In this document: piece after piece, positions 486 through 19,769 of the stretch
How the letters are laid out: every line of letters begins with the position of its first letter
Numbering within the stretch: position 1 is the stretch's first letter
Assembly (NCBI GenBank): GCA_036555275.1
Contig: DATBLR010000091.1
Coordinates: 8,888-72,887, forward strand
Length of the DNA stretch: 64,000 nucleotides
Direction: 5' to 3'
From: Gemmatimonadales bacterium
GTDB lineage: Bacteria; Gemmatimonadota; Gemmatimonadetes; Gemmatimonadales; GWC2-71-9
Notes under the pieces: model-generated
Told to the model about the DNA's origin: nothing
The model's input: only the letters and a program-made list of their open reading frames with translations
Databases searched by the model: none
Translations under genes and position numbers: made by a program

Positions 486-1991
486 TCAGCCTGTCCTCGC
501 CGATGCGGTAACTGAACTCCGCGGCTCGGGCCGGTGCCGGTTCCCGCCCACGAGGGCCAGCAACCTGTTCCCCAAGGCGTTCAGGTCCTGCGCCGTCCGC
601 TCGGCCTGCCTGGTCGAGGCCAGGTTCTGCTGGGTGGCCTCGTGGATGCTCGCCATAGCCTGGCGGACCTGCGTCATGCCCACGGCCTGCTGCCCAGCCG
701 AGGCAACGATCTGGACCGCCGCCTGTGCGGCTTCCGCCACGGCTTCGGCCAACGCCCGGATTGTCTCACCGGCCTCGGTCACCTGCCGGGTCGTTGCCGT
801 GGCCTGCTTGGTGCCCTGCTCGGTGGTCATGACAGCGGCGCTGGTGGCACGCTGGATCTCCCCCAGGATCCGCCGGACCTCGACCGTCGCCTTCTTCGAC
901 TGCTCGGCCAGGCTCTTCACCTCTCCCGCCACGACGGCAAAGCCGCGTCCCTGCTCCCCGGCGCGCGCCGCCTCCACGGCGGCGTTCAACGCCAGGAGGT
1001 TGGTCTGCTCGGCGATGTCGTTCACCGTCGCGATGATCTCCCCGATCGCCTGGGCCTGCTCGGACAGCGCCAGGATGCTTTCTACGATGGACTCCACCTG
1101 CTCCTTCACGCCCTTCATCGCCGCGGTTGACTCCTGGACCGCCTTGCGGCCGGCCTCGCCGATCTCAGCCGCCCGCTGGGCCGAGTCGGCCACCGCCCTG
1201 GCCCGCTGCGCCGCCTGCTCGGCGGTCTGCGCCACTTCGTCCACCGACGCCACCGTCTGCGCCACCGCGGCCGACGTCTCGCTTGCGCCGGAGGCTTGCT
1301 GCGTCGTGGCCGCCAGGATCTCCGCCGCGCTCGACGCGAGGACCCCGGTCGTTTCGCGGAGCGGGCCGCTCACGGCGCGGTTCAGGAATACTGCCGAGAG
1401 CGTGCCGACCACCAGCGCCAGCAGACCTGCCAGCAGGAGGACCGTCTGCATCCAGGCCGCGGTCGTCTGCGCTGCCGTGGTGGCGGCATCGGTCAGCTGC
1501 TCGGCGCGCGCAATGCCACGCTGGATCGCCGCCCGCACGGCCTCACGGGCCGCAACGGCGCGCGACTCGCGGATGCGCTCCGCCTCGACGCCCCGGCCCG
1601 CCCGCGCTTCCGTCATTGATGCCTGCGACGCTGCGTCCCACTGTGAGACCGCGCCAAGGGCCTCGGCCCATATGGCCCGGCCCTCGGCAGTATAGGCGGA
1701 GTCGCGCAACTGCACGAGCAGCACGTAACTCAAGGCGAGGGTGCTATCACGGCTGCGCAGCTCTGCGTCGTTCGGTCGAGCCAGGAATCCCTGGAAATCC
1801 AGGATGGCGCGGCGGAATTCCGCCTGCGCCGTGAGCGCGGGAACGAGCGTACGCCGCTCCCGATCCAGGGCGGCTCGATAGGTCTCCGACGTCCTTCGCA
1901 GCGCCACGACGCCTACCAGCACCACGACGACCACGAGGCTCAGACCCACCGCGAACCCCGCAACGATCCGGCGACTCACGGTCCACTGCAT
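486..1991 (-). CDS. methyl-accepting chemotaxis protein (2 TM, HAMP, MCP signalling domain)
   Basis: ORF 486..2051. Likely start is MQWTVSRR at 1991, followed by TM helix [20 protein letters not shown], a second TM, and the signalling hairpin tip [34 protein letters not shown]. Confidence 0.9.
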
Positions 1992-2091
1992 AGGCTCCCC
2001 CTCACCTCTGGAGACATAACATTGCGCCTGCATCGAGCATGTGCCCCGCATCGACCGTGATGCAGCGCAGGCACTTCTGCCGTGGGCGCCT

Positions 2092-5055
2092 TCATCCCCG
2101 TTCCGGCTTCGGGGTCCGGCGCCGCGCCTGGGGTGGCAGGCGGTTCAGGACCTCGAGGAGCTCACTCGTGTCCGACTTCGTTACGATCGTGGCGACCTGT
2201 CCCCGAAGTGCCGATTGCTCCGCCTCAGTCAGGTCCTTGAAGGTGAAGATCAGCACGGGGATGTCGCGGGTGGCCGGCTGTGCGTGGAGTCGCTTCAGCA
2301 CTTCGAACCCGCTCATGCCGGGCATGATCAGGTCCAGAACGATCACATCGGGCAGCGCTTCATTGGCCAGCCGAATGGCCGCTTCGCCCTCGTAGGCTCG
2401 GAGGGCCAGGAAGCCACGCCGCTCGAGGGTCTCGGCGAGAAGATCCACCGTCTCATGGTGATCATCCACGACCAGCACCGCCGTGGGGCGGGCTTGAGCG
2501 CGTGGCGGTACTGCCCGGCGCACAGCCGCCACCAGGTCATCACGGCTGACTGGCTTCACCAGCCACTCCGCGGCCCCGAGGCCCACTCCCCGCTCGCGAT
2601 CGTCGGTAATGGAGACGACGACCACCGGGATCTGCTCGGTGTCGGCGACGGCCCGGAGCCTGGCGAGAACCTCCAGCCCGTCCTGGTCGGGGAGGAGGAC
2701 ATCGAGGGTGATTGCCGCCGGCCGGAGCCGCTCCGCCATCTCGACGGCCTGAGCGCCGGTGACCGCGTGCGCCACCGCGTAGCCGTGTTCGCGCAGATAG
2801 TGGGACAGGAGCTCGCCAGCCGCCGGGTCATCCTCGACGACCAGGATCAGCGGTCCCTCCGCCCGATCGACCATCGGAGCCGGTGCGACCGCAGGGGACT
2901 TGCGATATCCCAGCGGCTCCAACGGCAGCGAGAAGGTAAAGGTCGATCCCACTCCTGGACTGCTCTCGACCCAGATCGCTCCACCGTGCAGCTGGACCAG
3001 CCGGCGTGTCAGCGCGAGCCCGAGGCCAGTCCCCGACTCCTCCCGGGAGACCACCGACCCGACCTGCTCGAACTCCAGGAAGATGCGTTCCTGATCCTCC
3101 GCTGCGATCCCGATGCCGGTGTCCGCCACCGAGACCTGGATGCGCCGATCCGCCCCCGACGACGGGTCCGCCGCCACCACGCGGGCCGTGACCCGGATTC
3201 GACCCCCCTCAGGTGTGAACTTGATCGCGTTGCTCAGCAGGTTGTACAGCATTTGCTTGAACTTGGAGCGATCGGCGGTCAACTCGGGCAGGTCGGCGGG
3301 GGTCTCCACCTGCACGGTCAGGCGCTTGCCGATCGCGAGAGACTCGACCAGCTGCTGCACCTCGCCAATGGCCTGGGCTGGAGGGAACGCGACGAGCTCC
3401 AGAGTCAGGCGCCCCGCCTCGACTTTCGCAAGATCCAGGATGTCGTTCACGAGCTGCAGCAGGTGGCGCCCGCTGGCGAGGATGTTTCCCACGTACCTGA
3501 CCTGCTTGTCGTTGAGGCCCCCGAACGTCCGGTCTTCCAGCAGCTCAGAGAATCCGATGATGGCGTTCAGCGGCGTCCGGAGTTCGTGACTCATGTTGGC
3601 GAGGAACTGCGATTTCGCGCGGTTGGCCGCCTCCGCCATCTGCCGGGCCCGCTGCTCCTCGGCCGCCCGCCGGTTCGCCGACAGGTCGGAGTAGACGGCA
3701 ACCAGGCCCGAGATCTTCCCGGCGGAATCGTGCAGCGGCGCGGTCGAGATGGCCACCTCGATCAAGGAGCCGTCCTTCCGCCGCCGGATGGTCTCGACCC
3801 CGCCGAGCTCTTCCCCCCGCATCATGCGGTCGTGCAGCTCCTGGGATTCCGCGATCCGGTCGCTCGGGATGTTCATCAGCTCCTGACCGACTACCTCCGC
3901 GCGGCTCCATCCGAACATTCGTTCGGCCCCGCCGTACCAGCTCACCACCCGACCATCGCCGTCGAAGCCGACGATGGCCTGCGGCGAGGCCTCCACCAGG
4001 GCACTCAGCTCATCGTGGGCCCGCCGCAGCGCCTCGCCCGCTTCCTTCCGTTCGGTGATGTCCAGGCAGGAGCCGATGAAGCCCAGGAACTCTCCGTCGG
4101 CCGACGACCGGGGCACTCCGGTCTCGATCATCCACCGGTACACGCCGTCCCGCCGCCTGAGTCGGTACTCGACGGTGTACGGCAGGCGCGACTCGTGGCT
4201 CGCATCGTACTGCTCGAGACAGGGACGGAGATCGTCAGGGTGGATCACCTCCTGCCAGCCGTGCCCCAACTCCTGTTCCCGCGTGCGGCCGGTAAACTCG
4301 AGCCACCCCTGATTGAAGTAGGTCACCATCCGGTCGGGGCCCGACATCCAGATCAGGACCGGCGCCGAGTTCGCCAAGGTGCGGAAGCGGGCCTCGCTCT
4401 CGCGAAGGCTCCGTTCGGCTGTACGCAGCTCGAGGTTCTGCTGGCGGAGTGACTCCTCCGCCTGCTGTAACTGCCCAATGGTCTGCCGCAGATCCTCGGT
4501 GCGTGCCTGGACCCGTGATTCCAGCTCTGCCTGCAGTTGCCTCAACTCCTGGTTCTTGAGCACCGCATCCTCGAAGCTGGAGATCAGCAGGTCGAGGATC
4601 TGTTCCCGCTCGGAGCCGATCGTGAACGTCGAGCCGAGGAAGGTGACCGAGACCCGCATCTGGGTCTTGGCCCTGCGGCGCAGCTCCAGGTTCTGGAGCA
4701 CGTTCCGGATCCGGGCCAGCAGATGCTCGCGCTCGTAGGGTTTGGTGATGTAGTTGTCGGCGCCGGCGGCCAGACCGCGCACGATGTCCATGGGGTCGTT
4801 GAGGCTGGTGAGGAGCAGGACCGGGACCTGGGCCGAGCCGGCCTCCGCCTTGATCCGGCGGCACACCTCATACCCATCGATCCCCGGCATGGTGATGTCG
4901 CTGATCACCAGGTCAAAGGCACTGTCGTGCATCAGAGCCAGCGCCTGCTCGCCGTTCGGCGCCACCGTGGCGTCGTATCCGCTTTCCTGCAGCAGCAGCG
5001 AAAGCGCCTCCGCCTGGGTCCGGCTGTCCTCGACGATGAGAATCTTCACGGGCAT
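2092..5055 (-). CDS. hybrid sensor histidine kinase: REC - coiled coil - PAS - PAS - HisKA - HATPase - REC - REC
   Basis: 987 aa. N-terminal receiver (KILIVEDS...[14 protein letters not shown]...ITKP), H-box [12 protein letters not shown]-boxes DTGIGI and GTGLGLAL, two C-terminal receivers. Start overlaps the cheB stop by 10 nt. Confidence 0.9.
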
Positions 5056-6092
5056 CGTTTCCCCCCGCCGATCAGATTCATGAGATGCCAGCCGATTTCG
5101 GTGACCGGTAGCTGGGTATCCACCACGCCGGCGTCCATCGCGGCCCGGGCCATGCCGTACACGACGGATGACGCCTCATCCTGACCCAGCACCTTCGCCC
5201 CGGCCTCTTTGGCAGAGCGCAGCCCATCCACTCCGTCCGCTCCCATGCCGGTCATGATGACGGCGAGCATCCGTGAGCCGTAGGCCCGGGCGGCGGACTG
5301 GAACAGATAGGTCGCGGACGGCCGAAAGCCGCCGATGGCCGGCTCGCTGCCGAGGTGAATCCGGCCGTCGCGGCTCACGCCGAGATGGCGCTCATCGGGC
5401 GCCAGGTAGACGGTGCGCGGGGAGAGGACTTCCTGCTGTTCGGCGACCTTGACCCGGAGATCGCAATTGGAATCGAGCCAGGTGGCGAGGCCGCCGATGA
5501 ATCCGGCGGCCATGTGCTGGACCACGAGCACCGGCACTGGAAAGGAACCGTCGAGGTCCGCCAGCACGCGATGCAGCGCGGCCGGGCCGCCCGTGGAGGT
5601 GGCCACGGCTACCAGCTCGATCGCTCCCGCCTGCGGCGCCAGCCGACCGGGCCTGGCCGGTGTCGGCGCCAGGGACCGCCAGCGTCGGACGAGCTTGACC
5701 TGCGCCATGGCCTTGACCATCGCCAGCAAGCGCTCCCGATGACCGTTGAAGAGCTCGGAGTCGGGGCTCTCCGGTTTGCGGACCACGGCCAGCGCCCCGG
5801 CCCGCATGGCATTGAGGGAGAGTTCGACATCGCGGCCGCTGGCACTCGACGACACAATGACGATCGGGGTCGGCGCCAGGACCATGATCTCCTTGGTCGC
5901 CTCGAAGCCATCCTGCAGCGGCATGTGCACGTCCATGGTAACCAGATCCGGCTTGAGCCGGACGGTCATCTCGACGACCTCGAGGCCGTCCTTGGCCTCA
6001 CCGATCACCTGGATTTCCGGATCGCTCTGCAGCACCCCGACCAGGAGTGTCCTGACCGTGAGCGAATCCTCCGCCACGACGACCCGAATCAT
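5046..6092 (-). CDS. cheB: chemotaxis response regulator protein-glutamate methylesterase CheB (REC + methylesterase)
   Basis: ORF 5046..6269. Likely start is MIRVVVAEDS at 6092, which overlaps the cheA stop by 4 nt. Motifs STGGP, VVQHM, MTGMGADG. Confidence 0.9.
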   Translation of the reverse strand: MIRVVVAEDSLTVRTLLVGVLQSDPEIQVIGEAKDGLEVVEMTVRLKPDLVTMDVHMPLQDGFEATKEIMVLAPTPIVIVSSSASGRDVELSLNAMRAGALAVVRKPESPDSELFNGHRERLLAMVKAMAQVKLVRRWRSLAPTPARPGRLAPQAGAIELVAVATSTGGPAALHRVLADLDGSFPVPVLVVQHMAAGFIGGLATWLDSNCDLRVKVAEQQEVLSPRTVYLAPDERHLGVSRDGRIHLGSEPAIGGFRPSATYLFQSAARAYGSRMLAVIMTGMGADGVDGLRSAKEAGAKVLGQDEASSVVYGMARAAMDAGVVDTQLPVTEIGWHLMNLIGGGKRCP

Positions 6093-8272
6093 GTGCCGAG
6101 CAGCTGGCGCACCACATCCAGCAGCTGCTGCTGGTCGAAGCTCGACTTTCCCAGGTACGCGTCCGCGCCGACCTCGAGCCCGCGGGCCCGGTGCTCGGTC
6201 GACTCCAGGGCGGTGACCAGGACCAGGGGAAGTCGCCGGAATCGCGTCGACGCGCGGATGGCCGCACACAGGCCGAAGCCGTCCATCCGGGGCATGTCAA
6301 CGTCGGCGACGACCAGATCCGCGCCACGCTCCTGGAGTTGCCGCCACGCGTCAGCTCCGTCGACGGCCGTGTCCACCTCGTAACCGGCCGCCTGCAGCAC
6401 GCTCTGCTCCAGGGCGCGGGTAGTGATGGAATCGTCCACGACGAGGAGCCGCCGCCGGGTCGGCGTGCCCTCCGCAGCCTCCGAGCTGACCCCAAGGCGG
6501 CCGCCCAGCCCGAGACCCGCGTCGACCACCGCCGCCGGGTCGAGCACCAGCGCCACCTCGCCGGTCCCGAGTAGCGCGGCGCCACTCAGATTCGGCGACG
6601 GTCTGTCCTTTCGCCCAACCGGCCGGACGACGACCTCCTGTTCGGCCCGGAGCTCGTCCACCACCAGTGCCAACCGGCGCTCGCCGCTTCGCACCACGAC
6701 CATCGGGAGGATGCCGGCCGTCGGGCGCTCCTGAAACGGCGGGCCGAGCACTTTTGCCAGGGAGGCCAGGGGTACCGGCCCTTCGGGAGTGGTCAGCACA
6801 TCGCGGCCTTCGGCGTTGTGCAGGCTCGCCGGATTCACCCGGCACAGCCGATCCACAGCCGACGTCGGAATAGCCAGCGTCTGCGGCCCGAGGCCAACCA
6901 GGACCACGCGAATCGTCGCGAGACTGGGAGGGGCCTCGATGGTGAAGCGAGTGCCGCGTCCCGCCTCCCACGCGACCGCGACGCGACCCCGGATCCGTCC
7001 AACCGCCGCGCGCACCGCATCCAGTCCCACCCCCCGCCCCGAGACGACGGTCGGGGCGCTGCGGGTGGAGAACCCACCGCGGAAGAGAGCGTCGCCCAAT
7101 TCCCGATCGGTACCAGGCACCGGCGCGCCGGCCGCGCGCATTCGCTCGCAAAGGGCGTCAGCTCTCATTCCGGCGCCGTCATCAGCCACGCTTACGACGA
7201 TCCGGTCACCGCTGAGCGCCGCCTCGACCATGATCTCTCCCATCGCGGGCTTCCCTGCAGCCTGCCGCTCGGCAGCAGTCTCGATTCCGTGGTCAACGGC
7301 GTTCCGGACCAGGTGGAGCAGGGCGTCGCGGAGACCGTCGAGCACGGCGCGATCGGCCTCCACCTCCCCGCCCCGGATGACCAGCCGCGCCTCCTTGCCG
7401 AGGCTCGTTGCGAGGTCGCGAACCGTGCGGGGCAACACTTGGCACGCTTCCGCGAAGGGCCGGAGCCGGAGCCGGCGGGCCCGGTCGGCGACGTCGTCCG
7501 TTACCCGGGCAAGGCTGCGGGTGTCCTGCAGCGCGAGCGCAGCGAGGCGGCGGCTCTCCTGGATCAGGTGCTCGGCGTGAGCCGACACCAACTCCAGGGA
7601 ACGGACCAAGGCCGGCGAATGATCCAGGGCGAGGCGCAATTGCCGGCTGGTCCGCTTCCAGGTCAGCGCCCAGGTGACGGCGTATTCATGCAGCGACTGG
7701 AGCTCGACCGGATGCTGGGCAAGCCGCTCCTCGAGCATCGGAATCTGCCCAGCGGCGGCGAGGAGGCCGTCGAGTTTGTCGGCCTCGACCCGCACGTGTC
7801 CGTCACTCCGCTCAATGACCGGCGGGGGGACGGATGCGGCGGCCTCCGCGGCAGGGGGGGGCCGCCTGCCAGTGGTGGCGCCTGCCTCCAGGGTTTGCAG
7901 CGCCTTCCGAAGCTCCGCCGGCACCGCCTCCCCGGCTTCCGCTCCGGCCTTGAGCCGATTGCCAACCGCCGTCAGCGCATCCGCGGCTCTGAAGAGCACG
8001 CCGAACTGTTCGTGGCCCAGGGTGCGCCGGCCACTCCGCACCTCGGCGAGGGCAGCCTCCAGCGCATGACACACCTCCTCCACGGAGTCGACTCGCGCGG
8101 CGCGGGCGGCCCCCTTGAGGGAGTGAACCACCCGAAACAGCGAGCGCAACCGCTCAACGTCTGCCGGGGCGGTCTCCAGGGCCAGCAGGTCGGCATTCAT
8201 GATCCGCACCTGCTCGTCCAGCTCGCTGGCGAAGGTCACCAGCAGGCGACGCGCCATCTGGTCGCGGTCCAT
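6089..8272 (-). CDS. cheA: CheA-type histidine kinase with C-terminal receiver (Hpt-dimerisation-HATPase-CheW-REC)
   Basis: 727 aa. Hpt HSLKGAARAARV, N-box HLVRNAVDHGIE, DDGAGM, GRGVGLDAV, CheW-like domain, C-terminal REC (LLVVDDS...VVADVDMPRMDG). Confidence 0.92.
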   Translation of the reverse strand: MDRDQMARRLLVTFASELDEQVRIMNADLLALETAPADVERLRSLFRVVHSLKGAARAARVDSVEEVCHALEAALAEVRSGRRTLGHEQFGVLFRAADALTAVGNRLKAGAEAGEAVPAELRKALQTLEAGATTGRRPPPAAEAAASVPPPVIERSDGHVRVEADKLDGLLAAAGQIPMLEERLAQHPVELQSLHEYAVTWALTWKRTSRQLRLALDHSPALVRSLELVSAHAEHLIQESRRLAALALQDTRSLARVTDDVADRARRLRLRPFAEACQVLPRTVRDLATSLGKEARLVIRGGEVEADRAVLDGLRDALLHLVRNAVDHGIETAAERQAAGKPAMGEIMVEAALSGDRIVVSVADDGAGMRADALCERMRAAGAPVPGTDRELGDALFRGGFSTRSAPTVVSGRGVGLDAVRAAVGRIRGRVAVAWEAGRGTRFTIEAPPSLATIRVVLVGLGPQTLAIPTSAVDRLCRVNPASLHNAEGRDVLTTPEGPVPLASLAKVLGPPFQERPTAGILPMVVVRSGERRLALVVDELRAEQEVVVRPVGRKDRPSPNLSGAALLGTGEVALVLDPAAVVDAGLGLGGRLGVSSEAAEGTPTRRRLLVVDDSITTRALEQSVLQAAGYEVDTAVDGADAWRQLQERGADLVVADVDMPRMDGFGLCAAIRASTRFRRLPLVLVTALESTEHRARGLEVGADAYLGKSSFDQQQLLDVVRQLLGT

Positions 8273-8814
8273 CAGTCCCTGGACCTCGCGCCGTCTCCCG
8301 TCGCCGGACTCTGCTGGACCAGCGCCAGCAACCGGCGTCCCAGCCGATCCAGGTCCTGGGCCGCGCGCTCCGCCTGCCGGGTCGAGGCCAGGTTCTGCTG
8401 GGTCGCTTCGTGGATGTTGGCCATCGCCTGACGGATCTGGCTCATCCCCACGGTCTGCTGGCCCGCCGAGGCCACGATCTGGGCGGCCGCCTGGGCGGCC
8501 TCACCCACCGCATCGCGCACCTGCCTGGCAACGGTCCCCACCTGCTTGGTCCCCTCCTCGGTGGTCATCACCGCCGCCCCCGTCGCCCGCTGGATCTCGC
8601 CGAGGATCCGACGGACCTCCACGGTGGCGCGCTTCGACTGCTCCGCGAGGCCCTTCACCTCGGCGGTCTGCGCCACTTCGTCCACCGTGGCCACTGTCTC
8701 CGTGACCGCGGCCGATGTTTCGGTGGCCCCCGACGCCTGCTGGGTCGTCGCGGCCAGGATCTGGCTCGCGCTGCTCGCCAGCACCGTCGCCGTTTCCTGC
8801 AGCGGACGGCTCAC
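8272..8814 (-). CDS. MCP-derived protein lacking TM/HAMP and the signalling hairpin tip (intact ORF; possibly a pseudogene)
   Basis: 180 aa, colinear and highly similar to residues ~228-505 of the MCP at 486..1991. An exact in-frame gap removes ~99 aa (QAAQRARAV...RGFAVVAGE). The junction reads VDEVAQTAE|VKGLAEQSK. Its stop overlaps the cheA ATG by 1 nt. Confidence 0.6.
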   Translation of the reverse strand: MSRPLQETATVLASSASQILAATTQQASGATETSAAVTETVATVDEVAQTAEVKGLAEQSKRATVEVRRILGEIQRATGAAVMTTEEGTKQVGTVARQVRDAVGEAAQAAAQIVASAGQQTVGMSQIRQAMANIHEATQQNLASTRQAERAAQDLDRLGRRLLALVQQSPATGDGARSRD

Positions 8815-8910
8815 GCCCCGACGGCCGCAATCTTGTGGGAGATGACCAATCTCATTGCTCGACCTCCAGTTCAGTCCGTCCCGGCAGCTGTCCCGGCCTC
8901 CCGGGCCTCG

Positions 8911-9411
8911 TCACACAACATCCGCCCACTCGCGAAGCAAGGCCTTGGCGTCCAGCAGCAGCATCGCCTCACTGGTCATGCCCCGGAGATAGGGACGCGC
9001 CATCGTCCGGCCCTCGGGAAGGGGATGGATACTCGAGAGCGGGACCGAGGCCAGGACCTGGACCGCGTTCACCAGCAGGCCGAAGGCCGCCCGAGCTTCG
9101 CCCAGCACCAGCACCTGGTTCAGATCGTCGAGAGCCGCGACCGATAGCCCGAGTACCCGCCGGAGGTCGAGCACCGTCAGCAATTCTCCCCGCCAGCCGG
9201 TTACACCGTGAAGGGGGGGCTCGGCCCCGGGCAGCGCCGAGAGGTGGAGGAGCGGCGAGACCGCAACGACGTAGCGGGCTTCGATGGCATAGAGCTCCCC
9301 GGCGAGCGTGAACGCGATGACCTCCAGCGCGGCTCCGGCGGGCTGCTGCTTGAGGGGCCGGGCCAGGTGCCGGGCCCGTTCCTCAAGCAACAGAAGGGGG
9401 TCCGCGGCCAT
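8911..9411 (-). CDS. cheW: CheW-like coupling protein
   Basis: ORF 8911..9570. Likely start is MAADPLLLLEE at 9411, 17 nt after the cheR stop. CheW fold pattern: VIAFTLAGELYAIEARYV...GVTGWRGELLTVLDLR. Confidence 0.85.
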   Translation of the reverse strand: MAADPLLLLEERARHLARPLKQQPAGAALEVIAFTLAGELYAIEARYVVAVSPLLHLSALPGAEPPLHGVTGWRGELLTVLDLRRVLGLSVAALDDLNQVLVLGEARAAFGLLVNAVQVLASVPLSSIHPLPEGRTMARPYLRGMTSEAMLLLDAKALLREWADVV

Positions 9412-9428
9412 GCCCTGCGGCGGCGCCC

Positions 9429-10874
9429 TCACGCGATTGCCGATCGAGCGAGCTGTGCCTGGGCTCGCGCCAGGGTCGCCAAGCGGCTTGCGGGTTCGCC
9501 ATCGGACGCAGGCACGATCGCCGACTCCGGCAGCGCGGCGAGCCGGCGCTCCGCATTGGTGAAGGCGCACTCCGCCCCCGCGACATCACCCAGCCGGAGC
9601 AGCGCCGACCCGAGGAGCAGGTGGACCACGGCGAGGGTGGGGTCGAGATAGAGGGCGCGGCGGGCCGCGGCGGCGGCTTCGGCGTAGAGTCTCGCCTCGC
9701 TCAGCAGAAGAGCATGGAGATAGACCAGCTCAGCCACGAGCGGATGCCGATCCAGGGCCATTGCGCATGCCCGCCCCGCTTCGGCGAGGGCCCCGCGGTT
9801 CGCATGCGCGCGGACCAGCAGGATCCAGAGGGCGGCATCGTCCGGACTCCCGCGGAGCCAGCGTTCGAGGCAAAGCACGGCCCCCTCGTAATCGCGGGCG
9901 GCATACCGAACCAGCGCCTCGGGTTCGGTATCGGCGATAACCGCCGGAGGCTCCTGGACCGTCGGCGGCACCGGAATGGGCGCTACGGGATGGGCCGGTT
10001 CCATCGGTCTGGGGCGAGGGTTCGCAAACCTTGGCGGAACCGGTCCGCCACCCGGGCGGACCCGTCGGTACGCCAGCCCGGCCGGGGTAGTCAGCACCTC
10101 GCACTGGGCCAACCGAGCGATCGGTGGATCCGCCGCACCCAGCAGGAGCCAGCCCCGATCGCTCAGCGAATCAATCAGCCGCCGGGCGACCCGGGCCGCG
10201 GTGTCGGCATCGAAGTAGATCAGGACATTGCGACAGAGGATGAGGTCCATCTCTCCGATCCCGCTCGCCGGGGAAGGATAGATGTCCTCGGCCAGGTTCA
10301 GGTAGCGGAACTCCACCGCCTCACGCACCGCTGGCACCGGTTCCCATTTGCCCTGAATCCGCTGGAAGTACGCCTCAACCACATCGGGCGGGACCCCTCG
10401 GAACGACCATTGGCCGTACCGGGCGCGGCGCGCGGCCGCCAAGGCTGGTCGCGCGAGATCGGTTCCGAGGATCCTCGCTCCGCCGAGCCGGCCGAGCTGA
10501 GCCAGCTGAATGGCGAGGCTGAAGGGCTCTTCCCCGGTCGCGCAGCCGGCGCTCCAGATACGGAGCCCGCCCTCACATCCGACGAACCCGGGGAGGATCT
10601 CGTCGCGGATCAATGCCAATTGCGCCGAGTCCCGAAAGAAGTAGGTCTCCCCGACCGCCACCTCCGCGATGAGGGCCTGGAGCAGCGGCGCCTCGTTGGC
10701 GAGTCGAGCAGGGAACTCTTCGGGATCCATCCGGCCGGCGCAAAGCATGGTTCGTGCAATGCCCGCCTCGAGCGCCGCCTGGCGGGACTCACTGGCAACG
10801 AGCCCAGTCCGGCGACGGAGCACTTCACTGGCCGCGGCGACGATGGCCGCCGGCAGGGGCGCCGGCCGGCTCAT
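9429..10874 (-). CDS. cheR: chemotaxis protein methyltransferase CheR with C-terminal TPR domain
   Basis: 481 aa. ETYFFRD, RIWSAGCATGEEPFSLAI, LILCRNVLIYFD, then a TPR-like helical C-terminus. Confidence 0.9.
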   Translation of the reverse strand: MSRPAPLPAAIVAAASEVLRRRTGLVASESRQAALEAGIARTMLCAGRMDPEEFPARLANEAPLLQALIAEVAVGETYFFRDSAQLALIRDEILPGFVGCEGGLRIWSAGCATGEEPFSLAIQLAQLGRLGGARILGTDLARPALAAARRARYGQWSFRGVPPDVVEAYFQRIQGKWEPVPAVREAVEFRYLNLAEDIYPSPASGIGEMDLILCRNVLIYFDADTAARVARRLIDSLSDRGWLLLGAADPPIARLAQCEVLTTPAGLAYRRVRPGGGPVPPRFANPRPRPMEPAHPVAPIPVPPTVQEPPAVIADTEPEALVRYAARDYEGAVLCLERWLRGSPDDAALWILLVRAHANRGALAEAGRACAMALDRHPLVAELVYLHALLLSEARLYAEAAAAARRALYLDPTLAVVHLLLGSALLRLGDVAGAECAFTNAERRLAALPESAIVPASDGEPASRLATLARAQAQLARSAIA

Positions 10875-11362
10875 CTGGTCGGACCCGATGCGGCAGCAAG
10901 GACTTCGCCCCGCATGGCCACGCTCAGTAGCTGGTCGATCTCCAGCCGTTCCTCGATCGAGAGGAATTGATCAAGGTCGTGGATGATCAGGACTCCGTCT
11001 GGCAGTGTGGCGATTCCCGAAGCGTACTGCACGCCCGGAACCACGTCGGCAACCTTCCGGATGACTTCGGGAGCCACCGTCAGGAGGTCAAGCGCACGGT
11101 CGACTCGGAGCGCCACGGGGCCACCGAGCGTGTCGGCGAGCATGAGGTGTTGGTCTGGTTGCAGGGGCGCGGCGGGCAGACCGAATCGCAGTCGGAGGTC
11201 GAGGACGGGCGTCACGGTACCGCCGACATTGATGACCCCTTCGAGGACTGCCGGTGCTCCAGGGAGCGGAGAGATCGCAACCGCCCGCACGATCCGGTTG
11301 ACCGAGCGCGCGTTGACGGCCAGGCACCACCCCCCAATCTCGAAGACAAGCAGGGATACCAC
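10871..11362 (-). CDS. cheW: CheW-like coupling protein
   Basis: 163 aa. LLVFEIGGWCLAVNARSV...GVINVGGTVTPVLDLRLRFGL. Stop overlaps the cheR start by 4 nt. Confidence 0.88.
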   Translation of the reverse strand: MVSLLVFEIGGWCLAVNARSVNRIVRAVAISPLPGAPAVLEGVINVGGTVTPVLDLRLRFGLPAAPLQPDQHLMLADTLGGPVALRVDRALDLLTVAPEVIRKVADVVPGVQYASGIATLPDGVLIIHDLDQFLSIEERLEIDQLLSVAMRGEVLAAASGPTR

Positions 11363-12398: not shown

Positions 12399-13511
12399 CT
12401 AGGCCGTCACCGAGCCGGGCCCGCGGAACTCGACCGGGTCGGCATGCTCACTGTGATCGGCGACGAAGGTCAGGGTCTGCCGCCGGCCCACGACCGCGCC
12501 GAGTGCATCAACGACCTTCGGGTCCAGAATGGTGCCGCGGAGTTCCTTCATGCGCTCGACAGCGGCTTCGGGACCCAGCTGCTCCTGGTAGGGCCGGGCG
12601 CTGGTGAGGGCATCGTACACTTCGGCGGCCCCAAGCAGGCGGGCTCCCCAGGGGATTTCCATGCCGGCCGTGCCATCCGGGTAGCCGCCGCCATCCCAGC
12701 GCTCATGGTGGTGGCGGACGAAGCGCACCAGCTCCTCGCACCCGGGGAGCGGGGCGAGGATTTCGGAGCCGATGGCGCTGTGCTTCTTCACCTGCTCAAA
12801 CTCCTCGGGGAGGAGCCGTCCCCGCTTTTTCAGGATAGCGGAGGGGACCGCGATCATGCCGAGGTCGTGGAGCTGGCCGGCCCGGCGGACCAGCTCCACT
12901 TCCTCATCGCTCCGGCCGAGCTGCGCGGCCATGGAGGCGGCGAATTCGGCAACCCTGACCGAGTGGCCGGTGAGATAGGGATCACCCGCCTCTTGCACGG
13001 TGACCAGCGCGCCGAGGGCTCCGAGAGCCAGGCGCTCCAGGTTCGCCTGCTCCAACCGCACCTCGGCGCTCCGCTTGGCGAGCTCCTCCCGCAGATAATG
13101 GGCGGTGTCGTACTCTTCCATCCGCCGTTGCCGTTCCCGGGCAGCCCGCTGCAGCGCCCGCTCGAGCGAGTCGAGCTGGAGCGGTTTGACGAGGTAGTCC
13201 ATGGCGCCCCGCTGCAGACAGACCGTAGCGTTCACCGCCTCGGTCTGGCCGGAGAGCATGATGATGGCGAGGTTCCTATCGAGGTGGGTGGCCTCCTGGA
13301 CGAGATCCATCCCGCTCATGCCGGGGAGGTTCACATCGAACAGCGCAAAGCTGAAGGGCTGGCCCTCCAGCGCCTTGAGCGCGTCCTCCCCACTCTGGGC
13401 GGTGACCACCTCGAAATCGAGGCGCGCGAGGAACTGCCGCAGCGCGTCGCGCATCTCAGCATCGTCGTCCACCACCAGGATGCGATTGGTTCCCGCCTCA
13501 GCCCGTACCAT
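12399..13511 (-). CDS. response regulator with HD-GYP domain (putative c-di-GMP phosphodiesterase)
   Basis: 370 aa. REC (RILVVDDD...ALFDVNLPGMSG...VKP) plus HD-GYP (LHDLGMI, HHERWDGGGYP). Confidence 0.9.
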   Translation of the reverse strand: MVRAEAGTNRILVVDDDAEMRDALRQFLARLDFEVVTAQSGEDALKALEGQPFSFALFDVNLPGMSGMDLVQEATHLDRNLAIIMLSGQTEAVNATVCLQRGAMDYLVKPLQLDSLERALQRAARERQRRMEEYDTAHYLREELAKRSAEVRLEQANLERLALGALGALVTVQEAGDPYLTGHSVRVAEFAASMAAQLGRSDEEVELVRRAGQLHDLGMIAVPSAILKKRGRLLPEEFEQVKKHSAIGSEILAPLPGCEELVRFVRHHHERWDGGGYPDGTAGMEIPWGARLLGAAEVYDALTSARPYQEQLGPEAAVERMKELRGTILDPKVVDALGAVVGRRQTLTFVADHSEHADPVEFRGPGSVTA

Positions 13512-13523
13512 GGACGCACCTCG

Positions 13524-13892
13524 TCAGCGACGGTTGTGACTGCGCGCCCGATATGGGCGCATGGCCCGGATGAGCATTATCATCGCGCTCTCCGTTCGCT
13601 GCAGCTCCGCCCGGGCCTCCCGCAGATCCCCGGAGCGTGCCATCCGCTCCAGTCCCCGGAGTGCCTCGCTGGCCTCGCCTGCGGAGAACTGGGCCACGCT
13701 GCCTCGCAGCCGATGGGCGGCCCACCCCACGCGCGCGTCGTCACCGGCGGCGACCGCCGCTTGCAACTGGGCAAGGATGGGCGGTGCGTGCTCGAGGAAC
13801 AACTCGATCAGCTCCCTGAAGATCCGCCGGTCTCGTCCCAGCGCCTCGAACAGCTGCGCGAGATCTCCCGCGGGGTCCCGCCGCCCGGTCAC
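13524..13892 (-). CDS. Hpt (histidine phosphotransfer) domain protein
   Basis: 122 aa with Hpt motif [20 protein letters not shown] start overlaps the stop of the upstream kinase relic (GTGA). Confidence 0.8.
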
Positions 13893-14601
13893 GACGCCAC
13901 TCCCTGCGAGACCTCCCGCTGGGCCATGCTCGGCAGCCGGAACCAGAAGGTGGTTCCCTCCCCCACTCGACTCGTCACCCCGACCTCACCGCCGTGGGCC
14001 TCGATGGGCATCCTGCCCGACTCCATCCGGCTGACATCGAGGACGGTATCAACCATGTCCTTCATTCTCCGGCAAGGGTCTTCAGCTGGGTAAGCATCCG
14101 GAGCGTCTCTTCGGCGTTGGTCCGCGCGGCGTCCATGCTGAGGAGATGCAGGTACGCGGAAAAGGCGTCGAGCGGAGAGCGGACGTCGTGGACGAGCAGG
14201 TGCACCAGACTGTCGCGGAGCACCTCCAGCTCGCGGAGCCGGACATCCTGGGCTTCCAACTCGTCATAGAGCTTCTTCCCGCGGAGGGCGTTGCGGACCC
14301 GGAGCAGCAGGTCGGCGCTGTCGATCGGCTTGGTGACGAAGTCACTGGCGCCGGCGCGGATGCCATCGAGCTTCGGCATCATCACATCGAGCAGAATGAC
14401 GTCCGGCTTGCTCGCACTCGCGGCGGCGAGCCCGTCGAGCCCGTTCTCTGCCTCCTCGACAACATACCCGTTGGTCTCCAGCAGCTTCCACAGCAGCTGG
14501 CGGTTGGCCGGCTCATCGTCCACGACCAGGACGCGCCCCGGCTCCTTCAACCGAGCGAATACCTCGTCAGCGGGTGATGCCGCCACGCTCCGGTCCTTCA
14601 C
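13890..14601 (-). pseudogene. decayed hybrid kinase: REC with internal deletion - HisKA - frameshift - HATPase tail only
   Basis: ORF 14062..14601. The REC jumps from LLDVMMPKLDG straight to IRAGASDFVTKP (about 35-40 aa missing). The H-box VHDVRSPL is present. After the stop at 14062 my +1-frame translation continues [21 protein letters not shown]|[25 protein letters not shown], so the N/G1/F boxes of the ATP-binding domain are deleted. Confidence 0.65.
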
Positions 14602-14968
14602 GCGTCAGGTATCGAGCGACTTCGGTCGGAAAGGTTCGCGTATTGATCGGTTTGGTGATATACCCGATACACCCTGCGGAGCGCGCCGCCTCCTCGTCTC
14701 CTTTCATCGCCTGCGCGGTGAGCGCCACGACCGGGATCGCCGCGGTCCGGGGATCGGCGCGAAGGCGCCGCAATGCTTCCAGTCCGCTCATATCGGGCAA
14801 TCGGATATCGAGGAGGACCAGATCCGGCAAGTGTTCCCCCGCCATCCGCAGCCCTTCCGTGGCGGTGGTCGCCTCGAGGACCGTCAGCCCTGCCGTACGC
14901 AACACATCCGACGCCAGCTCCAGATTCATCGGATGATCCTCGACCACCAGCACCATGGCACTGGTCAC
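14567..14968 (-). CDS. single-domain CheY-like response regulator
   Basis: 133 aa. VLVVEDHPMN...LVLLDIRLPDMSG...ITKP. Start overlaps the stop of the upstream hybrid kinase by 4 nt. Confidence 0.9.
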   Translation of the reverse strand: MTSAMVLVVEDHPMNLELASDVLRTAGLTVLEATTATEGLRMAGEHLPDLVLLDIRLPDMSGLEALRRLRADPRTAAIPVVALTAQAMKGDEEAARSAGCIGYITKPINTRTFPTEVARYLTREGPERGGITR

Positions 14969-17412
14969 GCGGGTTCGCTCCCTTCGGAAACGGCGTCGGG
15001 CGCGCGACGGCGGGAGGGGATCCGCTCGATGGCGTCGAGCAGGGTCACCGTGTCCGACTTGGAGACGATCCGGCGCACCCGCCCGCTCAGTGCCTCGCGC
15101 TCGTCCGCAGCCAGCTCCTTGAACGTGAAGACTATGACCGGAATGCCCCGAGTTGCCTCCTGCTCCTGGAGCCGGCGGGCGACCTCGAACCCGGAGAGAC
15201 CCGGCATGACGAGATCGAGCACCACGACATCGGGAAGCTGCTCGGTTGCGAGGCGGATCCCCTCGGCCCCGCCGTAAGCGCGCAAGGCTCGGAAGCCGCG
15301 GCGCTCGAGGGTATCCGCGAGCAGGTCGACGGTCTCCCGGTGGTCGTCAATAACCAGGATGGTGCGCTCCCCGCCGTTCGATGTCGCCGGTACTGCCCGG
15401 GACACCGCATCGAGGAGCCGCTCCCGGTTGACCGGCTTGACCAGCCAGTCCGAGGCCCCGAGGCTGAACCCAAGCGCCCGGTCGTCGGTAATCGATACGA
15501 CGATCACCGGAATCCGCTCGGTGTCCGCCAATGCCCGGAGCCGGGACAGGACCTCGAGGCCATCCTGATCCGGCAGGAGGATGTCCAGGGTGATCGCGAC
15601 CGGCTTGAGCCGGCGGGCCATCTCAAGCGCCTGCTCGGCGTTCGCGGCCTGGGCGACGGCGTAGCCCTGGCTTGTCAGATAGTGGCAGAGTAGTTCGCCG
15701 GCCACCGGATCATCCTCGACCACCAGCACGACCGGCTTGCCGTCCTCCCCGGGCAGGGCCGCTGCTCCTGCTCCAGCCCGGCCGGGTGTCAGCACGCTGG
15801 GCGGAACCCGCGGCAGGAAGATGGAGAACGTAGAGCCCCTCCCGACGGTGCTTTCCAGGCCGATCCTTCCGCCGTGCAGATCGACCAGCCGGCGGGTGAG
15901 AGCGAGGCCGAGTCCGGTACCCTGCTGCTCCCTGACGTAGGAAGCGTCGAGCTGCTCGAATTCCAGGAAGATCCGGTTCTGGTCTTCCGGCCGGATGCCG
16001 ATACCGCTGTCTTCCACCTCGATGGCCAGCCAGTCTTCCGCCTCCCCCGGGGCGCTGGGGTCAGGGACCGTCCGGGCTCGCACCTGCACCAGCCCACCGT
16101 CGTGGGTGAACTTGATCGCGTTGCTGAGCAGGTTGTAGAGGATTTGCTTGAACTTGGCCCGATCCGCGGTGATGATCGGCAACGCGGCCGGCGAGCTCAC
16201 CTCCAGGCGCAGCCGCTTCCCCATCGCCAGTGACTCAACAATGCGCTGCACCTCACGGATCGCGGCGACGGGTTCGAAGCTGCTGGGCTCGAGAGTCAGG
16301 CGTCCAGCCTCGATCCTGGCGAGATCGAGAATGTCGTTGACCAGATCGAGAAGGTGTCGGCCGCTGGTCACAATGTTCCCCACGTAGCGCCGCTGCCGGT
16401 CGTTCAGGGGACCGGAGCTCAGGTCCTCCAGGAGCTCCGAGAAGCCGATGATGGCGTTGAGCGGAGTCCGAAGCTCGTGGCTCATGTTGGCGAGAAACTG
16501 TGACTTGGCGCGGCTGGCCGCTTCCGCCATTTCGCGGCCGCGCCCCTCTTCCTCCGCACGTCGGCGCTCGCTGATGTCAGCGTAGACCACGACGGCCCCG
16601 ATCACCGCGCCGCCGGAATCATGTAGCGGAGCGGACCAGAGGCTCACATCGACCCGCGAGCCGTCCTTGCGACGACGGGTTGTCATGAAATCGGTGATCA
16701 CCTCTCCACCCAGGGCGCGACGGCGCAGGTCGCTGTCCTCCTCGGTCAGGTCGGCGGGAACGTTGGGCAGCTCCCCCCCGACGACCTCGGCCGCCGTCCA
16801 GCCGAACATGCGCTCAGCGCTGGCGGGCCAGCTGGTAACGCGGCAGGTCAGGTCGATACTCACGATCGCCTGCGGCGACGCCGCCACGATAGTGCGGAGC
16901 TCGTCATGCGCTCGCCGCAGCGCCTCGAGCGCCGAGGTCAGGGCGTCCGGGCTGGTCCGCGCCGCCTTGAGGCGCACGTACTCGGTGACCTCCTCCAGCC
17001 GGTGAATGATGTAGGCAACCTTCTTCCCCCGGCCGAATACCGGAAAGTTGACCGGGCTCCACCAGCGCTCCTCGAAGCCGCCTCCCTCGGCCTCGGGCCG
17101 GCGAATGTCATACTTCTGCACCGCCATCGCATCGGGCCGCCGGTGCGTGAGAACCCGCTGGAGCGAGGCCCGGAGATTCCCGACTCCGGTGCCGGCGATC
17201 TCGTCGGGATTGTCGGGGAAGACCTCGAAGATGCCGCGGCCCACAATGGCCTCCCGGCGGGTCATCGTCGCCCGGAGGTAGGCGTCGCTCACGGCGATGA
17301 TGGTGAAGTCGGGCGCGAGCACCAGGTAGTGCCCCGGAACCGCCTCAAACAGCGCCCGGAAGTCCGCTGGGGGCAGCCTCGATCGGCGGGTGGCGGGACC
17401 GCGGCGCTTCAT
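14965..17412 (-). CDS. hybrid sensor histidine kinase: PAS - PAS - HisKA - HATPase - REC - REC (paralog of 2092..5055)
   Basis: ORF 14965..17556. Likely start is [10 protein letters not shown] at 17412, 8 nt after the upstream stop. H-box [25 protein letters not shown], two receivers. Long near-identical stretches with the kinase at 2092..5055. Confidence 0.9.
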
Positions 17413-17420
17413 TCCCTTCC

Positions 17421-18659
17421 TCAGCGCCTTTCGCCGGCATCGACATCCTTCAGATGGCGCGGCAGGGGAAGTCTGATGAAGGCGGCCACCAGCCGAGGAT
17501 CGAAGTGGCGGCCACTCAGCCCGCAGATCTCGGCGGTGACACGCTCCAGTGACCACGGGGGGCGGTAGGGACGGGCGTGCGTCAGGGCATCAAAATAGTC
17601 GGCGATGGTGACCAGCCGGGCCTCGATTGGAATGTCATCGGCCGCCAAGCCATCCGGATAGCCTTCTCCATCCCAGCGCTCATGGTGACTCCGGGCAATC
17701 CGCTCCGCCATTCGGATCAGGTCAGTCTGCCCGCCAGCCAGAATCTGGGCCCCGATGGTGGTGTGAGTCCGCATGACCGTGAACTCCGCTTCCGTCAACC
17801 GAGCGGGCTTGAGCAAGATCTGGTCGGGGATCCCGATCTTGCCCACGTCATGGAGGGGTGCCGCGCGGCGGATCAGATTCGCCCCATTCTCCTCGATGCC
17901 GACTGCGCGGGCCAGCGCCTCGGAAAGGGCCGCCACGCGCTGAGTGTGGCGTCCGGTGTCGTCATCGCGGAATTCCGCCGCGCTCGCCAGACGCTCCAGG
18001 ACCTCCAGTTGGGACTCGTCCAGTTGGCGGGTCCGGGCTAGAACCATCCCTTCCAGCTGCCGGTTCTGCTCCTTGAGCTCCAGATGCAAGAACCGGGTTT
18101 CCAGCAGATTGCCGATCCGGAGCAGAACCTCCACCCCGTCGAACGGCTTGAGCAGGAAATCCCGTGCCCCTCCTGCCAATGCCTGCTGCCGGACTTCGGT
18201 GCGGCTGTCGCCAGTCAGCATGATGACCGGAAGGTGATTGTCCGCGGCCAGTTCCTCGCGAAGGGCATGGAGCACACCAAACCCGTCGAGGCCCGGCATG
18301 TGGAGGTCGAGCAGAATCGCGTCCGGTCGAAACTCGCGAAACACCGCCAGCGCCTGCCGCGAATCCGCCGTGCAGTTGACCGCGCGGTAGCCCGCGTTGC
18401 CGAAAATGCCCTCCAGCAACTGGAGGTTGAGATCTTCGTCGTCTATGACGAGGATCCGCGCCTCGGGATGGCGCGCCGCTGCAGCCTGTCGATAAACTGA
18501 GAGCGCCGGGGCCCCCGGGGCACTCCGCTTCCGTTCGGACCTGCCGTCGGATCGTGGCGCCGCCGATCGCATCTCCTGCTCGCTGATTCTCATATCTGCT
18601 CCGCCCGACCCTTCGCCAGGGCTACGACTTGGCGACCGGACCGAGGTCGGTACTGTCAA
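17421..18659 (-). CDS. response regulator with HD-GYP domain (paralog of 12399..13511)
   Basis: 412 aa. REC (ILVIDDEDLN...ILLDLHMPGLDG...LKP) plus HD-GYP (LHDVGKI, HHERWDGEGYP). Start uncertain (18659 or MRISEQ at 18593). Confidence 0.88.
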   Translation of the reverse strand: MTVPTSVRSPSRSPGEGSGGADMRISEQEMRSAAPRSDGRSERKRSAPGAPALSVYRQAAAARHPEARILVIDDEDLNLQLLEGIFGNAGYRAVNCTADSRQALAVFREFRPDAILLDLHMPGLDGFGVLHALREELAADNHLPVIMLTGDSRTEVRQQALAGGARDFLLKPFDGVEVLLRIGNLLETRFLHLELKEQNRQLEGMVLARTRQLDESQLEVLERLASAAEFRDDDTGRHTQRVAALSEALARAVGIEENGANLIRRAAPLHDVGKIGIPDQILLKPARLTEAEFTVMRTHTTIGAQILAGGQTDLIRMAERIARSHHERWDGEGYPDGLAADDIPIEARLVTIADYFDALTHARPYRPPWSLERVTAEICGLSGRHFDPRLVAAFIRLPLPRHLKDVDAGERR

Positions 18660-18837
18660 GAGAAGCTACACCAGTCAGCATCTACCAGATGCGGACCACG
18701 ATAAGGCCAACCCCCCCGGAAGCGGTATCAGACATATCTGACAATTGGGGACAAACCGTTGTGAGGCAACCAATACGGCCAGCGGGTTACCCCTAAATCA
18801 AGGCGGGCTGCTGCGACAGGAGCAGGTGGGAATGGCG

Positions 18838-19467: not shown

Positions 19468-19769
19468 CGGCTCTCCCGGGCGGGGGCGCTCCGGTGAGTG
19501 GCAGGATGAGGGAGAGCCGGGTTCCTTCACCCGTTGCACTCTGGATCTCGCAGCGGCCATGGAGCGCCAGCGCTCGTTCCCGCATGCCGAGCAGGCCGAG
19601 GGAGCTGGGATGGTGCATGGCTTCAGCGGGAAGGCCGATGCCATTGTCGCTCACTTCGAGGGTGGCCAGCCCGTCCGCGATGTCAAGCCGGGCCCGGACG
19701 AGATCCGCCTTGGCGTGGCGCGCGACATTAGCGAGTGCCTCCTGCAGGACCCGGAAGATCGTGGTGGAG
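19397..19769 (-). pseudogene. 5'-truncated NarX/LiaS-type histidine kinase: HATPase domain only, no HisKA_3 or sensor
   Basis: ORF 19397..19849. Only FRVLQEALANVARHA...VSDNGIGLP...GLLGMRERALALHG...GEGTRLSLILPL is kinase-like. The first ~27 codons are a read-through of the tRNA-Leu gene. There is no start codon between the tRNA and the N-box. Confidence 0.7.

Follow-up and report, generated by a model that had tools for sequence, protein, structure and literature searches.

Che-like pathways that control functions other than motility are common in genomes, but only in a few species are they understood. The CheA-REC hybrid CheA3 of Rhodospirillum centenum phosphorylates the first receiver (REC1) of CheS3 and thereby shuts off signalling from CheS3 to CheY3 (PMC3868531, PMC4436063). 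In Burkholderia cenocepacia, WspE is the presumed phosphodonor of WspH (PMC8552884, PMC4324302). Kessler et al. described Wsp systems as exclusive to beta- and gammaproteobacteria, with H-systems found only in Burkholderia and none of them having a 3' regulator (PMC8552884). Here we describe a chemosensory operon of a soil bacterium of the phylum Gemmatimonadota, analysed within a stretch of 64,000 nucleotides (the window). Its eight co-directional genes, all on the minus strand, span 486-11362, and the gene following cheB encodes a hybrid histidine kinase headed by a receiver (REC) domain. The gene content, the intact motifs, the conserved architecture and the linkage of the receiver head to che operons are directly observed. 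The operon probably encodes a Wsp-like, non-motility chemosensory pathway of the alternative cellular function (ACF) type, in which CheA would control the REC-headed hybrid kinase. The G+C content of the window is ~68%, and its proteins have their best-named homologues in metagenome-assembled genomes of Gemmatimonadales or Gemmatimonadota.

Organization of the operon

Genes were called by listing and translating open reading frames (ORFs), followed by Pfam and NCBIfam scans. The order from 5' to 3' is cheW1, cheR with a TPR-like tail, cheW2, a remnant of a methyl-accepting chemotaxis protein (MCP) gene, cheA-REC, cheB, the hybrid kinase gene and a full-length MCP gene, with Pfam E-values far past the chance level. 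The first gene, cheW1 (10871-11362), encodes a protein of 163 residues with a CheW match of 85 bits, and cheW2 (8911-9411) encodes 166 residues from an inner ATG with a CheW match of 77 bits. Between them lies cheR (9429-10874; 481 residues, Pfam CheR 135 bits). Residues 319-445 of its C-terminal tail show several TPR matches, each under its own Pfam cut-off (E-values of 1e-4 to 1e-2), and such matches are also present in the cheR orthologues. The remnant (8272-8855) precedes cheA-REC (6089-8272; 727 residues), which has Pfam Hpt, HATPase_c and CheW domains and a C-terminal Response_reg domain, without a Pfam match to P2 or P3. It is followed by cheB (5046-6092; 348 residues from an inner ATG, Pfam REC and CheB_methylest, the latter 190 bits), the hybrid kinase gene (2092-5055; 987 residues with three Response_reg, two PAS, a HisKA and a HATPase_c domain) and the full-length, type-1 MCP gene (486-1991, or to 2051; 501 residues from MQWTV, MCPsignal 129 bits).

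Inspection of the translations showed that the phospho-acceptor motif of the CheA Hpt domain (HSLKG) and the catalytic Ser-His-Asp of CheB are intact and that the C-terminal receiver of CheA carries its Asp. The NCBIfam scan matched a CheB subfamily (328 bits, cut-off 293) and gave no specific name for any other component of the operon. The flagellar-type CheA models of NCBIfam reached only 220-293 bits against cut-offs of 793-950, matching the P4-P5 part only. Full-length CheA orthologues are numerous in Gemmatimonadota, with identities of 51-62%.

The junctions were read directly from the sequence. The cheW1/cheR and cheA/cheB junctions are ATGA overlaps, the remnant and cheA overlap by 1 nt in TGATG, and the start codon of the kinase lies inside the end of cheB with a 10-nt overlap. 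The gene order and start-stop overlaps given in the initial annotation are thus confirmed. At least four independent Joint Genome Institute (JGI) metagenome assemblies contain this locus in identical form. A scan for sigma-70 promoters and terminators gave nothing above the shuffled expectation.

The receiver head of the hybrid kinase

The hybrid kinase consists of a head (residues 1-180, 4516-5055, minus strand) and a remainder (residues 181-987, 2092-4515, minus strand). The head comprises REC1, with Asp53, and a conserved extension, and is the predicted target of CheA. The remainder contains a coiled coil, PAS1, PAS2, HisKA, HATPase_c, REC2 and REC3, and Pfam detected neither an Hpt nor a GGDEF domain in the protein. 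In the translation, the H-box (SHELRTP), the N box and the G1 and G2 motifs are intact. All three receivers carry an Asp, and Asp53 of REC1 aligns with Asp53 of PleD.

Among the 268 receiver domains of the loci analysed, the 14 best matches to REC1, at 98-132 bits, all belong to che-linked kinases of many phyla and are the first receivers of these proteins; the next matches score at most 84 bits. REC2 and REC3 show no preference for the receivers of che-linked kinases in the same set. In a domain-wise BLAST comparison, the head as a whole, REC1 with its 55-residue extension, has 55-67% identity to the heads of che-linked kinases of Gemmatimonadota and 40-55% to those of Geobacter, Gallionella and Limnocylindria, compared with only 36% to other receivers in the window. 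Two head-bearing kinases chosen by sequence alone, P0100 and P0057, are each encoded by the last gene of a che operon. Phosphotransfer from CheA to REC1 is the best reading of these comparisons, because the REC1 head is most similar to the heads of che-linked kinases and because the same step has been demonstrated from CheA3 to REC1 of CheS3 in R. centenum (PMC3868531).

An AlphaFold model of the head (AF2, five-sequence alignment, mean predicted local distance difference test score of 84) shows a receiver fold, a β-hairpin (residues 132-149) modelled at lower confidence and a long helix, which is unbroken from residue 150 to at least residue 224 and runs into PAS1. In this model, the helix is of the kind of signalling helix by which a receiver could control a downstream module. 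A Foldseek search with the head model retrieved only generic receiver domains, leaving the β-hairpin extension unmatched. Residues ~126-180 (4516-4680, minus strand) carry a strongly conserved motif that follows REC1 in all heads of the che-linked kinases, K-T-x-x-G/R-V-x-V-x-F-L-G...I-T/G-S-E-R/K-E/Q-Q-I-L-D-L-L/F-I-S-S-x-E-D-A/V-V. The motif corresponds to the modelled β-hairpin and the start of the long helix; it belongs to no Pfam family and is without a match in the PDB.

Mosaic structure of the hybrid kinase

A whole-protein search found no full-length orthologue of the hybrid kinase besides the identical sequence. The best matches are PAS-HisKA-HATPase-REC-REC kinases of Gemmatimonadales, with 50-57% identity over 77-89% coverage; most of them are without the head and carry different sensors at the N terminus (CHASE3, for example). 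A second hybrid kinase of the window, HHK2 (14965-17556, minus strand), matches residues 341-987; it is a paralogous PAS-HisKA-HATPase-REC-REC protein that heads a phosphorelay operon upstream of the che operon. Identities are 56% for PAS2, 82% for DHp, 62% for CA, 72% for REC2 and 64% for REC3, with 54% overall over 816 residues. The same residues have at most 35% identity, or no match at all, to the che-linked kinases of the three closest Gemmatimonadota loci (L081, L082 and L083). On sequence comparison, therefore, the hybrid kinase is a mosaic, in which a che-specific head is joined to the transmitter of a different, lineage-expanded family. The mosaic structure explains why close full-length orthologues were not found. 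HHK2 is not uniquely close, with other family members reaching 56-57% identity to the hybrid kinase, and a recent local duplication of HHK2 is therefore treated as unproven.

Related operons and their outputs

The three closest loci, L081, L082 and L083, lie on long contigs of Gemmatimonadota and show the order cheW, cheR, cheW, one or two MCP genes, cheA-REC, cheB and a REC-headed kinase gene. Their CheA proteins are 56-62% identical to that of the window, and their output kinases have the architecture REC-(PAS or GAF-PAS)-HisKA-HATPase-REC. A wider scan at one genome per species gave 80 CheA relatives, and a full CheA is present at 79 loci; genes at these loci were mapped by our own procedure of ORF calling and phmmer searches, with ten proteins checked against Pfam. 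REC-GGDEF follows cheB, as in classic Wsp, at 29 of the 79 loci (for example in Paraburkholderia, Achromobacter and Bosea), and a REC-headed histidine kinase adjoins cheB or cheA at 23. Five loci have another type of kinase as the output, and the remaining loci are too short or unlabelled. The REC-headed kinase loci belong to Gemmataceae, Limnocylindria, Ignavibacteriae, Victivallales, Geobacter, Waddliaceae, Gallionella, Armatimonadota, Rokubacteria, Tectomicrobia, Methylomirabilota, Verrucomicrobiota and one gammaproteobacterium. Thus, the REC-headed hybrid kinase that the initial annotation placed in the output position is present and is no accident of this genome, being conserved in three further Gemmatimonadota genomes and at about 23 of the 79 loci. 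The arrangement is not unusual, as had been supposed; it is widespread and has published precedents.

A midpoint-rooted neighbour-joining tree of the 79 CheA proteins, calculated without bootstrap and thus indicative only, places the window CheA in a deep clade whose known outputs are kinases only. The REC-GGDEF systems form the sister clade, which includes a verrucomicrobial subclade with REC-HK-REC-REC outputs, and the window CheA does not group with the WspE proteins of the REC-GGDEF clusters. REC-GGDEF Wsp clusters were also found in the Alphaproteobacteria (for example in Bosea and Ancylobacter). At locus L093 (340-15934), the REC-headed kinase ends a different che cluster, comprising a CheA with P3 and without REC, CheD, a CheC/CheX-Hpt fusion and CheY; the kinase is followed by REC, PAS kinase and REC-HD-GYP genes.

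The composition of the operon points to the ACF-type, Wsp-like, non-motility class, because CheA-REC is without P2, the CheR tail is TPR-like, two CheW proteins and a 40H-like receptor are present, and the relatives include Wsp systems. The Wsp-like synteny noted at the outset holds for the two CheW proteins, CheR, CheA-REC, CheB and the MCP, and genuine Wsp clusters with REC-GGDEF are among the CheA relatives. Pfam scans of positions 1-55340 and of 10 kb beyond the window start revealed no flagellar or pilus genes, in line with the earlier statement that none are nearby; this region contains only two-component, TonB-receptor and housekeeping genes. No GGDEF domain was found among the window proteins scanned with Pfam. 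No single-domain REC is encoded within 486-11362, and the nearest is at 14567-14968.

The flanks of the operon differ among all four Gemmatimonadota loci. At L081, a fragment of a phage-integrase-family gene (4782-5405) lies ~600 bp upstream of the first cheW, which hints that the che cluster may move between genomic sites.

The full-length receptor and the receptor remnant

The full-length MCP has two transmembrane helices, a sensor region of ~150 residues and a signalling domain, and no HAMP match was found with Pfam. The signalling domain gives a gap-free alignment of 268 residues with the Pseudomonas putida receptor 6s18. The protein is 21 residues longer than Escherichia coli Tsr, and its span equals that of the Pseudomonas aeruginosa CtpM model. 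We take 6s18 to be of the 40H class and Tsr of the 36H class; partly on these presumed classes, the alignment is consistent with a 40H-like receptor. The 40H class has been reported for the WspA orthologue of Pseudomonas syringae (PMC11253619) and for a Wsp-like cluster of Halomonas (PMC5907407). Over its whole length, the full MCP shares 85% identity with the MCP that occupies the receptor slot of L081 (8520-10004), and 73% in the periplasmic sensor, whereas CheA and CheB of the same genome pair are only 62-63% identical. The receptor, being more conserved than CheA and CheB, is either unusually constrained or was exchanged more recently.

The remnant occupies the slot just 5' of cheA, where the relatives keep their receptor gene or genes. 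It consists of a 180-residue ORF (8272-8814) and an out-of-frame relic of 14 codons (8811-8855), and its MCPsignal score of 20 bits is under the cut-off of 34.6. Alignment shows that it lacks the counterparts of residues 1-206 of the full MCP, the transmembrane and sensor region, and of residues 258-356, which include the kinase-control hairpin tip. Its C-terminal arm aligns without gaps to type-2 MCPs (the second MCP of L082, the MCP of L083 and P0241). The 14-codon ORF follows a good Shine-Dalgarno sequence, resembles a receptor start (MRLVISHKIAAVG) and ends in a GTGA overlap with the GTG start of the remnant, and the remnant ORF is unchanged in four assemblies. In the simplest reading of the sequence, the fragment would be a decayed second receptor, of type 2, in the ancestral receptor slot. 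By the same simplest reading, an ancestral pair MCP1-MCP2 as in L082 would have existed, of which MCP2 decayed in place and MCP1 now forms the 3' end of the operon.

A role of the remnant as a functional tip-less receptor was also considered. The dN/dS of 0.16 (the ratio of nonsynonymous to synonymous substitution rates) relative to the full MCP seemed supportive and was then dismissed, because the remnant and the full MCP represent old paralogue types and the value is uninformative about the time after truncation; the frameshift in the relic of the N terminus indicates decay. The partial relative P0241, whose sequence begins precisely at the deletion boundary, is cut there by a contig end. 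A further internally deleted MCP, P0263 (L088, 1401-2051; 216 residues), keeps the first transmembrane helix and is without sensor and tip. It lies between cheW and cheA on a 2.2-kb Logan contig, so that an assembly (repeat) collapse is possible.

The upstream phosphorelay module

The region upstream of cheW1 encodes a second signalling module (12399-19644), in which all genes identified by Pfam are on the minus strand. It comprises REC-GerE (18838-19644), a first REC-HD-GYP (17421-18659), HHK2, the single-domain REC, a truncated REC-HisKA gene (14062-14601), a free Hpt protein of 122 residues (13524-13892) and a second REC-HD-GYP of 370 residues (12399-13511). The Hpt domain scores 37.8 bits, and its AHRLRGS motif aligns to a solved Hpt structure. 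The second REC-HD-GYP has REC and HD_5 (127 bits) domains and an HHERWDGGGYP motif; its gene starts 13 nt after the Hpt gene and lies ~1 kb upstream of cheW1. Locus L090 (4984-14155) has the same genes in the same order, with 68-79% identity and no che operon. Where L090 has a full REC-HisKA-HATPase gene, the window has a gene cut to its first ~200 residues together with the free Hpt ORF, which is without a counterpart in L090. The core trio of the module is also present at L091, again with no che operon. Judged by these syntenies, the module is a conserved signalling unit of Gemmatimonadales. Since the che-linked kinase ends in two receivers and is without an Hpt domain, the free Hpt protein and the second REC-HD-GYP are the obvious candidates for a relay.

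Proposed signal flow and alternative explanations

In the proposed pathway, the transmembrane 40H-like MCP (486-1991) and the two CheW proteins would control the autophosphorylation of CheA-REC, and CheR-TPR and CheB would provide methylation-based adaptation. CheA-P1 would hand phosphate to Asp53 of REC1 in the hybrid kinase, and phosphorylated REC1, acting via the β-hairpin and the long helix, would raise or lower the autokinase activity of the PAS-PAS-HisKA-HATPase module. In the R. centenum precedent, the sign is inhibitory (PMC3868531). The two PAS domains may allow a second, cytoplasmic input. The kinase core would phosphorylate its own REC2 and REC3, and because the protein is without an Hpt domain, the phosphate would exit via a separate Hpt protein, for which the nearest candidate is the free Hpt with its adjoining REC-HD-GYP phosphodiesterase. 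The phosphotransfers, all of them, are inferred, as are the direction of regulation and the identity of the downstream partner.

Some points weigh against this pathway. In some systems, the CheA-REC is merely a sink or an inhibitor, and here the receiver of CheA itself and CheB compete with REC1 for phosphate. The degraded gene in the canonical receptor slot makes the state of the receptor array uncertain. Because the kinases of the related che operons have non-orthologous transmitter halves, their downstream wiring is not transferable to the window kinase. Locus L093 shows the same head outside CheA-REC systems, and we infer the chemosensory class from architecture and relatives.

An alternative idea casts the hybrid kinase as a PAS-sensing two-component kinase that works independently and is merely housed in the operon; CheA-REC and CheB would suffice as phosphate acceptors. 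The signal of CheA would then go no further than its own receiver and CheB, or would pass to a CheY-like protein encoded elsewhere, and REC1 would be fed by another kinase such as HHK2. The crowding of two-component genes in the region, the single-domain REC at 14567-14968 included, and the origin of the transmitter half from a non-che family fit this idea. However, members of the REC1 head family sit specifically at the 3' ends of che operons at more than 20 loci of many phyla, and the two head-bearing kinases recovered blind also lie at such ends. With the start codon of the kinase inside cheB and a biochemical precedent for a CheA acting on a REC-headed kinase (PMC3868531), we regard an independent kinase as improbable. 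That the cluster is decaying or non-functional in this strain is very improbable. On that reading, its in-slot receptor would be destroyed, its operon rearranged and its output kinase recombinant. The in-slot MCP has indeed lost its sensor and transmembrane region (with a frameshift) and its kinase-control tip, the neighbouring REC-HisKA-HATPase gene is truncated relative to L090 and the hybrid kinase is a mosaic. However, the remaining genes are full length with intact catalytic motifs, a complete type-1 MCP highly similar to that of L081 is retained, the tight start/stop coupling is preserved, and the sequence recurs in at least four assemblies. Control of the REC-headed kinase by CheA thus remains the preferred reading.

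A refinement that does not exclude this reading concerns the final output, which may tentatively be placed in the degradation of cyclic di-GMP (c-di-GMP), as a mirror of Wsp. The hybrid kinase would act through the free Hpt (13524-13892) on the second REC-HD-GYP (12399-13511), in a relay shared with HHK2. The two C-terminal receivers of the che-linked kinase and its lack of an Hpt domain would suit such a relay, as would the Hpt and REC-HD-GYP genes, which share the strand of cheW1 and precede it by 1-2.5 kb. HHK2, heading that operon, shares DHp, REC2 and REC3 with the che-linked kinase at the identities given above. Within 10 kb, REC-HD-GYP or REC-EAL is found at 6 of the 24 loci of the window CheA clade and at none of the 56 others, although the counted loci are phylogenetically non-independent. 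REC-HD-GYP lies directly upstream of cheW at L092 and 3 kb downstream of the kinase at L093. Fused C-terminal Hpt domains occur on the kinases of relatives in Planctomycetota, Gallionella and a gammaproteobacterium, and REC-EAL is the next gene after the kinase at L009 (gammaproteobacterial) and L024 (Gallionella). However, HD-GYP and Hpt genes are absent within 10 kb of the three closest che operons, those of L081-L083, and the upstream module stands alone at L090 and L091, so that it may neighbour the che operon here by chance. Many Gemmatimonadales family members are at least as close to the hybrid kinase as HHK2 is (54-57% identity), and Kessler et al. reported that wsp mutations in B. cenocepacia leave c-di-GMP unchanged (PMC8552884). 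A broader generalization, which we consider rather doubtful, is a widespread, undescribed 'anti-Wsp' clade in which CheA-REC would act on a REC-headed kinase, a fused or free Hpt and a REC-HD-GYP or REC-EAL, lowering c-di-GMP. In the window, this would be achieved by a che-type head grafted onto the transmitter of the neighbouring HD-GYP phosphorelay.

Genomic surroundings

Positions 20-55 kb of the window contain housekeeping genes, named from their Pfam domains: galK, recN, nadK, dxs, ispA, xseA, folD, rny, pheST, infC, recJ, dnaG and a mutS2-like gene. A 546-residue ORF (21202-22842), the sole candidate on the plus strand of an otherwise minus-strand region, has a coding-like G+C content at third codon positions (GC3) of 0.82 and no Pfam match. 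Since it also overlaps the galactokinase gene at its end, it may be spurious. Directly downstream of the MCP gene, beyond window position 1 (L084/L085, 14679-20712), lies a third signalling module within the same 35 kb, comprising a TonB-dependent receptor, a DUF4154 protein, a CHASE8-HAMP-PAS hybrid kinase with two receivers and two single-domain receivers. The DUF4154 protein is presumably YfiR-like.

Comparison with known systems

Roughly 25 related loci indicate that a receiver-headed kinase as the output of a Che pathway is not peculiar to R. centenum or Burkholderia, and the design is conserved across Gemmatimonadota, Planctomycetota, Verrucomicrobiota, Chloroflexota, Desulfobacterota, Chlamydiota and others. 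Given the 3' coupled receiver-kinase outputs in many phyla and the alphaproteobacterial Wsp clusters, the distribution statements of Kessler et al. hold only under a narrow definition. The locus is a clear example of the rewiring of a pathway by domain grafting, with a che-specific head on a foreign transmitter, and it offers the hypothesis that some such systems control the breakdown of c-di-GMP.

The Wsp system of Pseudomonas (WspA-F, WspR) resembles the operon in its two CheW proteins, CheR-TPR, CheA-REC without P2 and CheB, in a receptor of the 40H class (putatively so in the window) and in the placing of the output gene next after cheB, with CheA homologues 33-39% identical. However, Wsp ends in the REC-GGDEF diguanylate cyclase WspR, whereas the window operon ends in the hybrid kinase; the Wsp receptor gene is the first of its operon, which is not the case here. 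The CheA clade of the window, sister to the Wsp clade in the neighbour-joining tree, has no REC-GGDEF outputs. The Wsp 'H-system' of Burkholderia cenocepacia (WspH/WspHRR) is likewise Wsp-syntenic, and WspR is replaced by a receiver-histidine kinase hybrid (PMC8552884, PMC4324302). However, wspH lies 5' of its operon as a separate transcription unit, whereas the window kinase is encoded at the 3' side, is translationally coupled to cheB and is much larger. The two systems also belong to different phyla and different CheA clades. The Che3/CrdS-CrdA system of Myxococcus xanthus is similar in being Che-like, without CheY, and in modulating a separate two-component system with a developmental output (PMC3147164). 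It differs in that CheA3 acts on the response regulator CrdA, and CrdS, which is without a receiver head, is not the target of CheA (PMC3147164).

The Che3 system of R. centenum, which governs cyst formation, has one MCP, two CheW proteins, CheR, CheB, CheA-REC and a PAS-bearing, REC-headed second kinase, and the receiver of CheA3 itself is a phosphate sink (PMC3868531, PMC4436063). The likeness is one of architecture, drawn from published descriptions rather than from sequence homology. The window operon, like Che3, has a CheA-REC and a second kinase with a phosphorylatable N-terminal receiver. CheS3 is a REC-REC(pseudo)-PAS-HWE kinase, in contrast to the REC-PAS-PAS-HisKA-HATPase-REC-REC kinase of the window, and Che3 has a dedicated CheY3 in the cluster, whereas the window operon has none. 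By analogy, the design of the window operon is one that is mechanistically already demonstrated for R. centenum Che3, rather than a new kind of mechanism.

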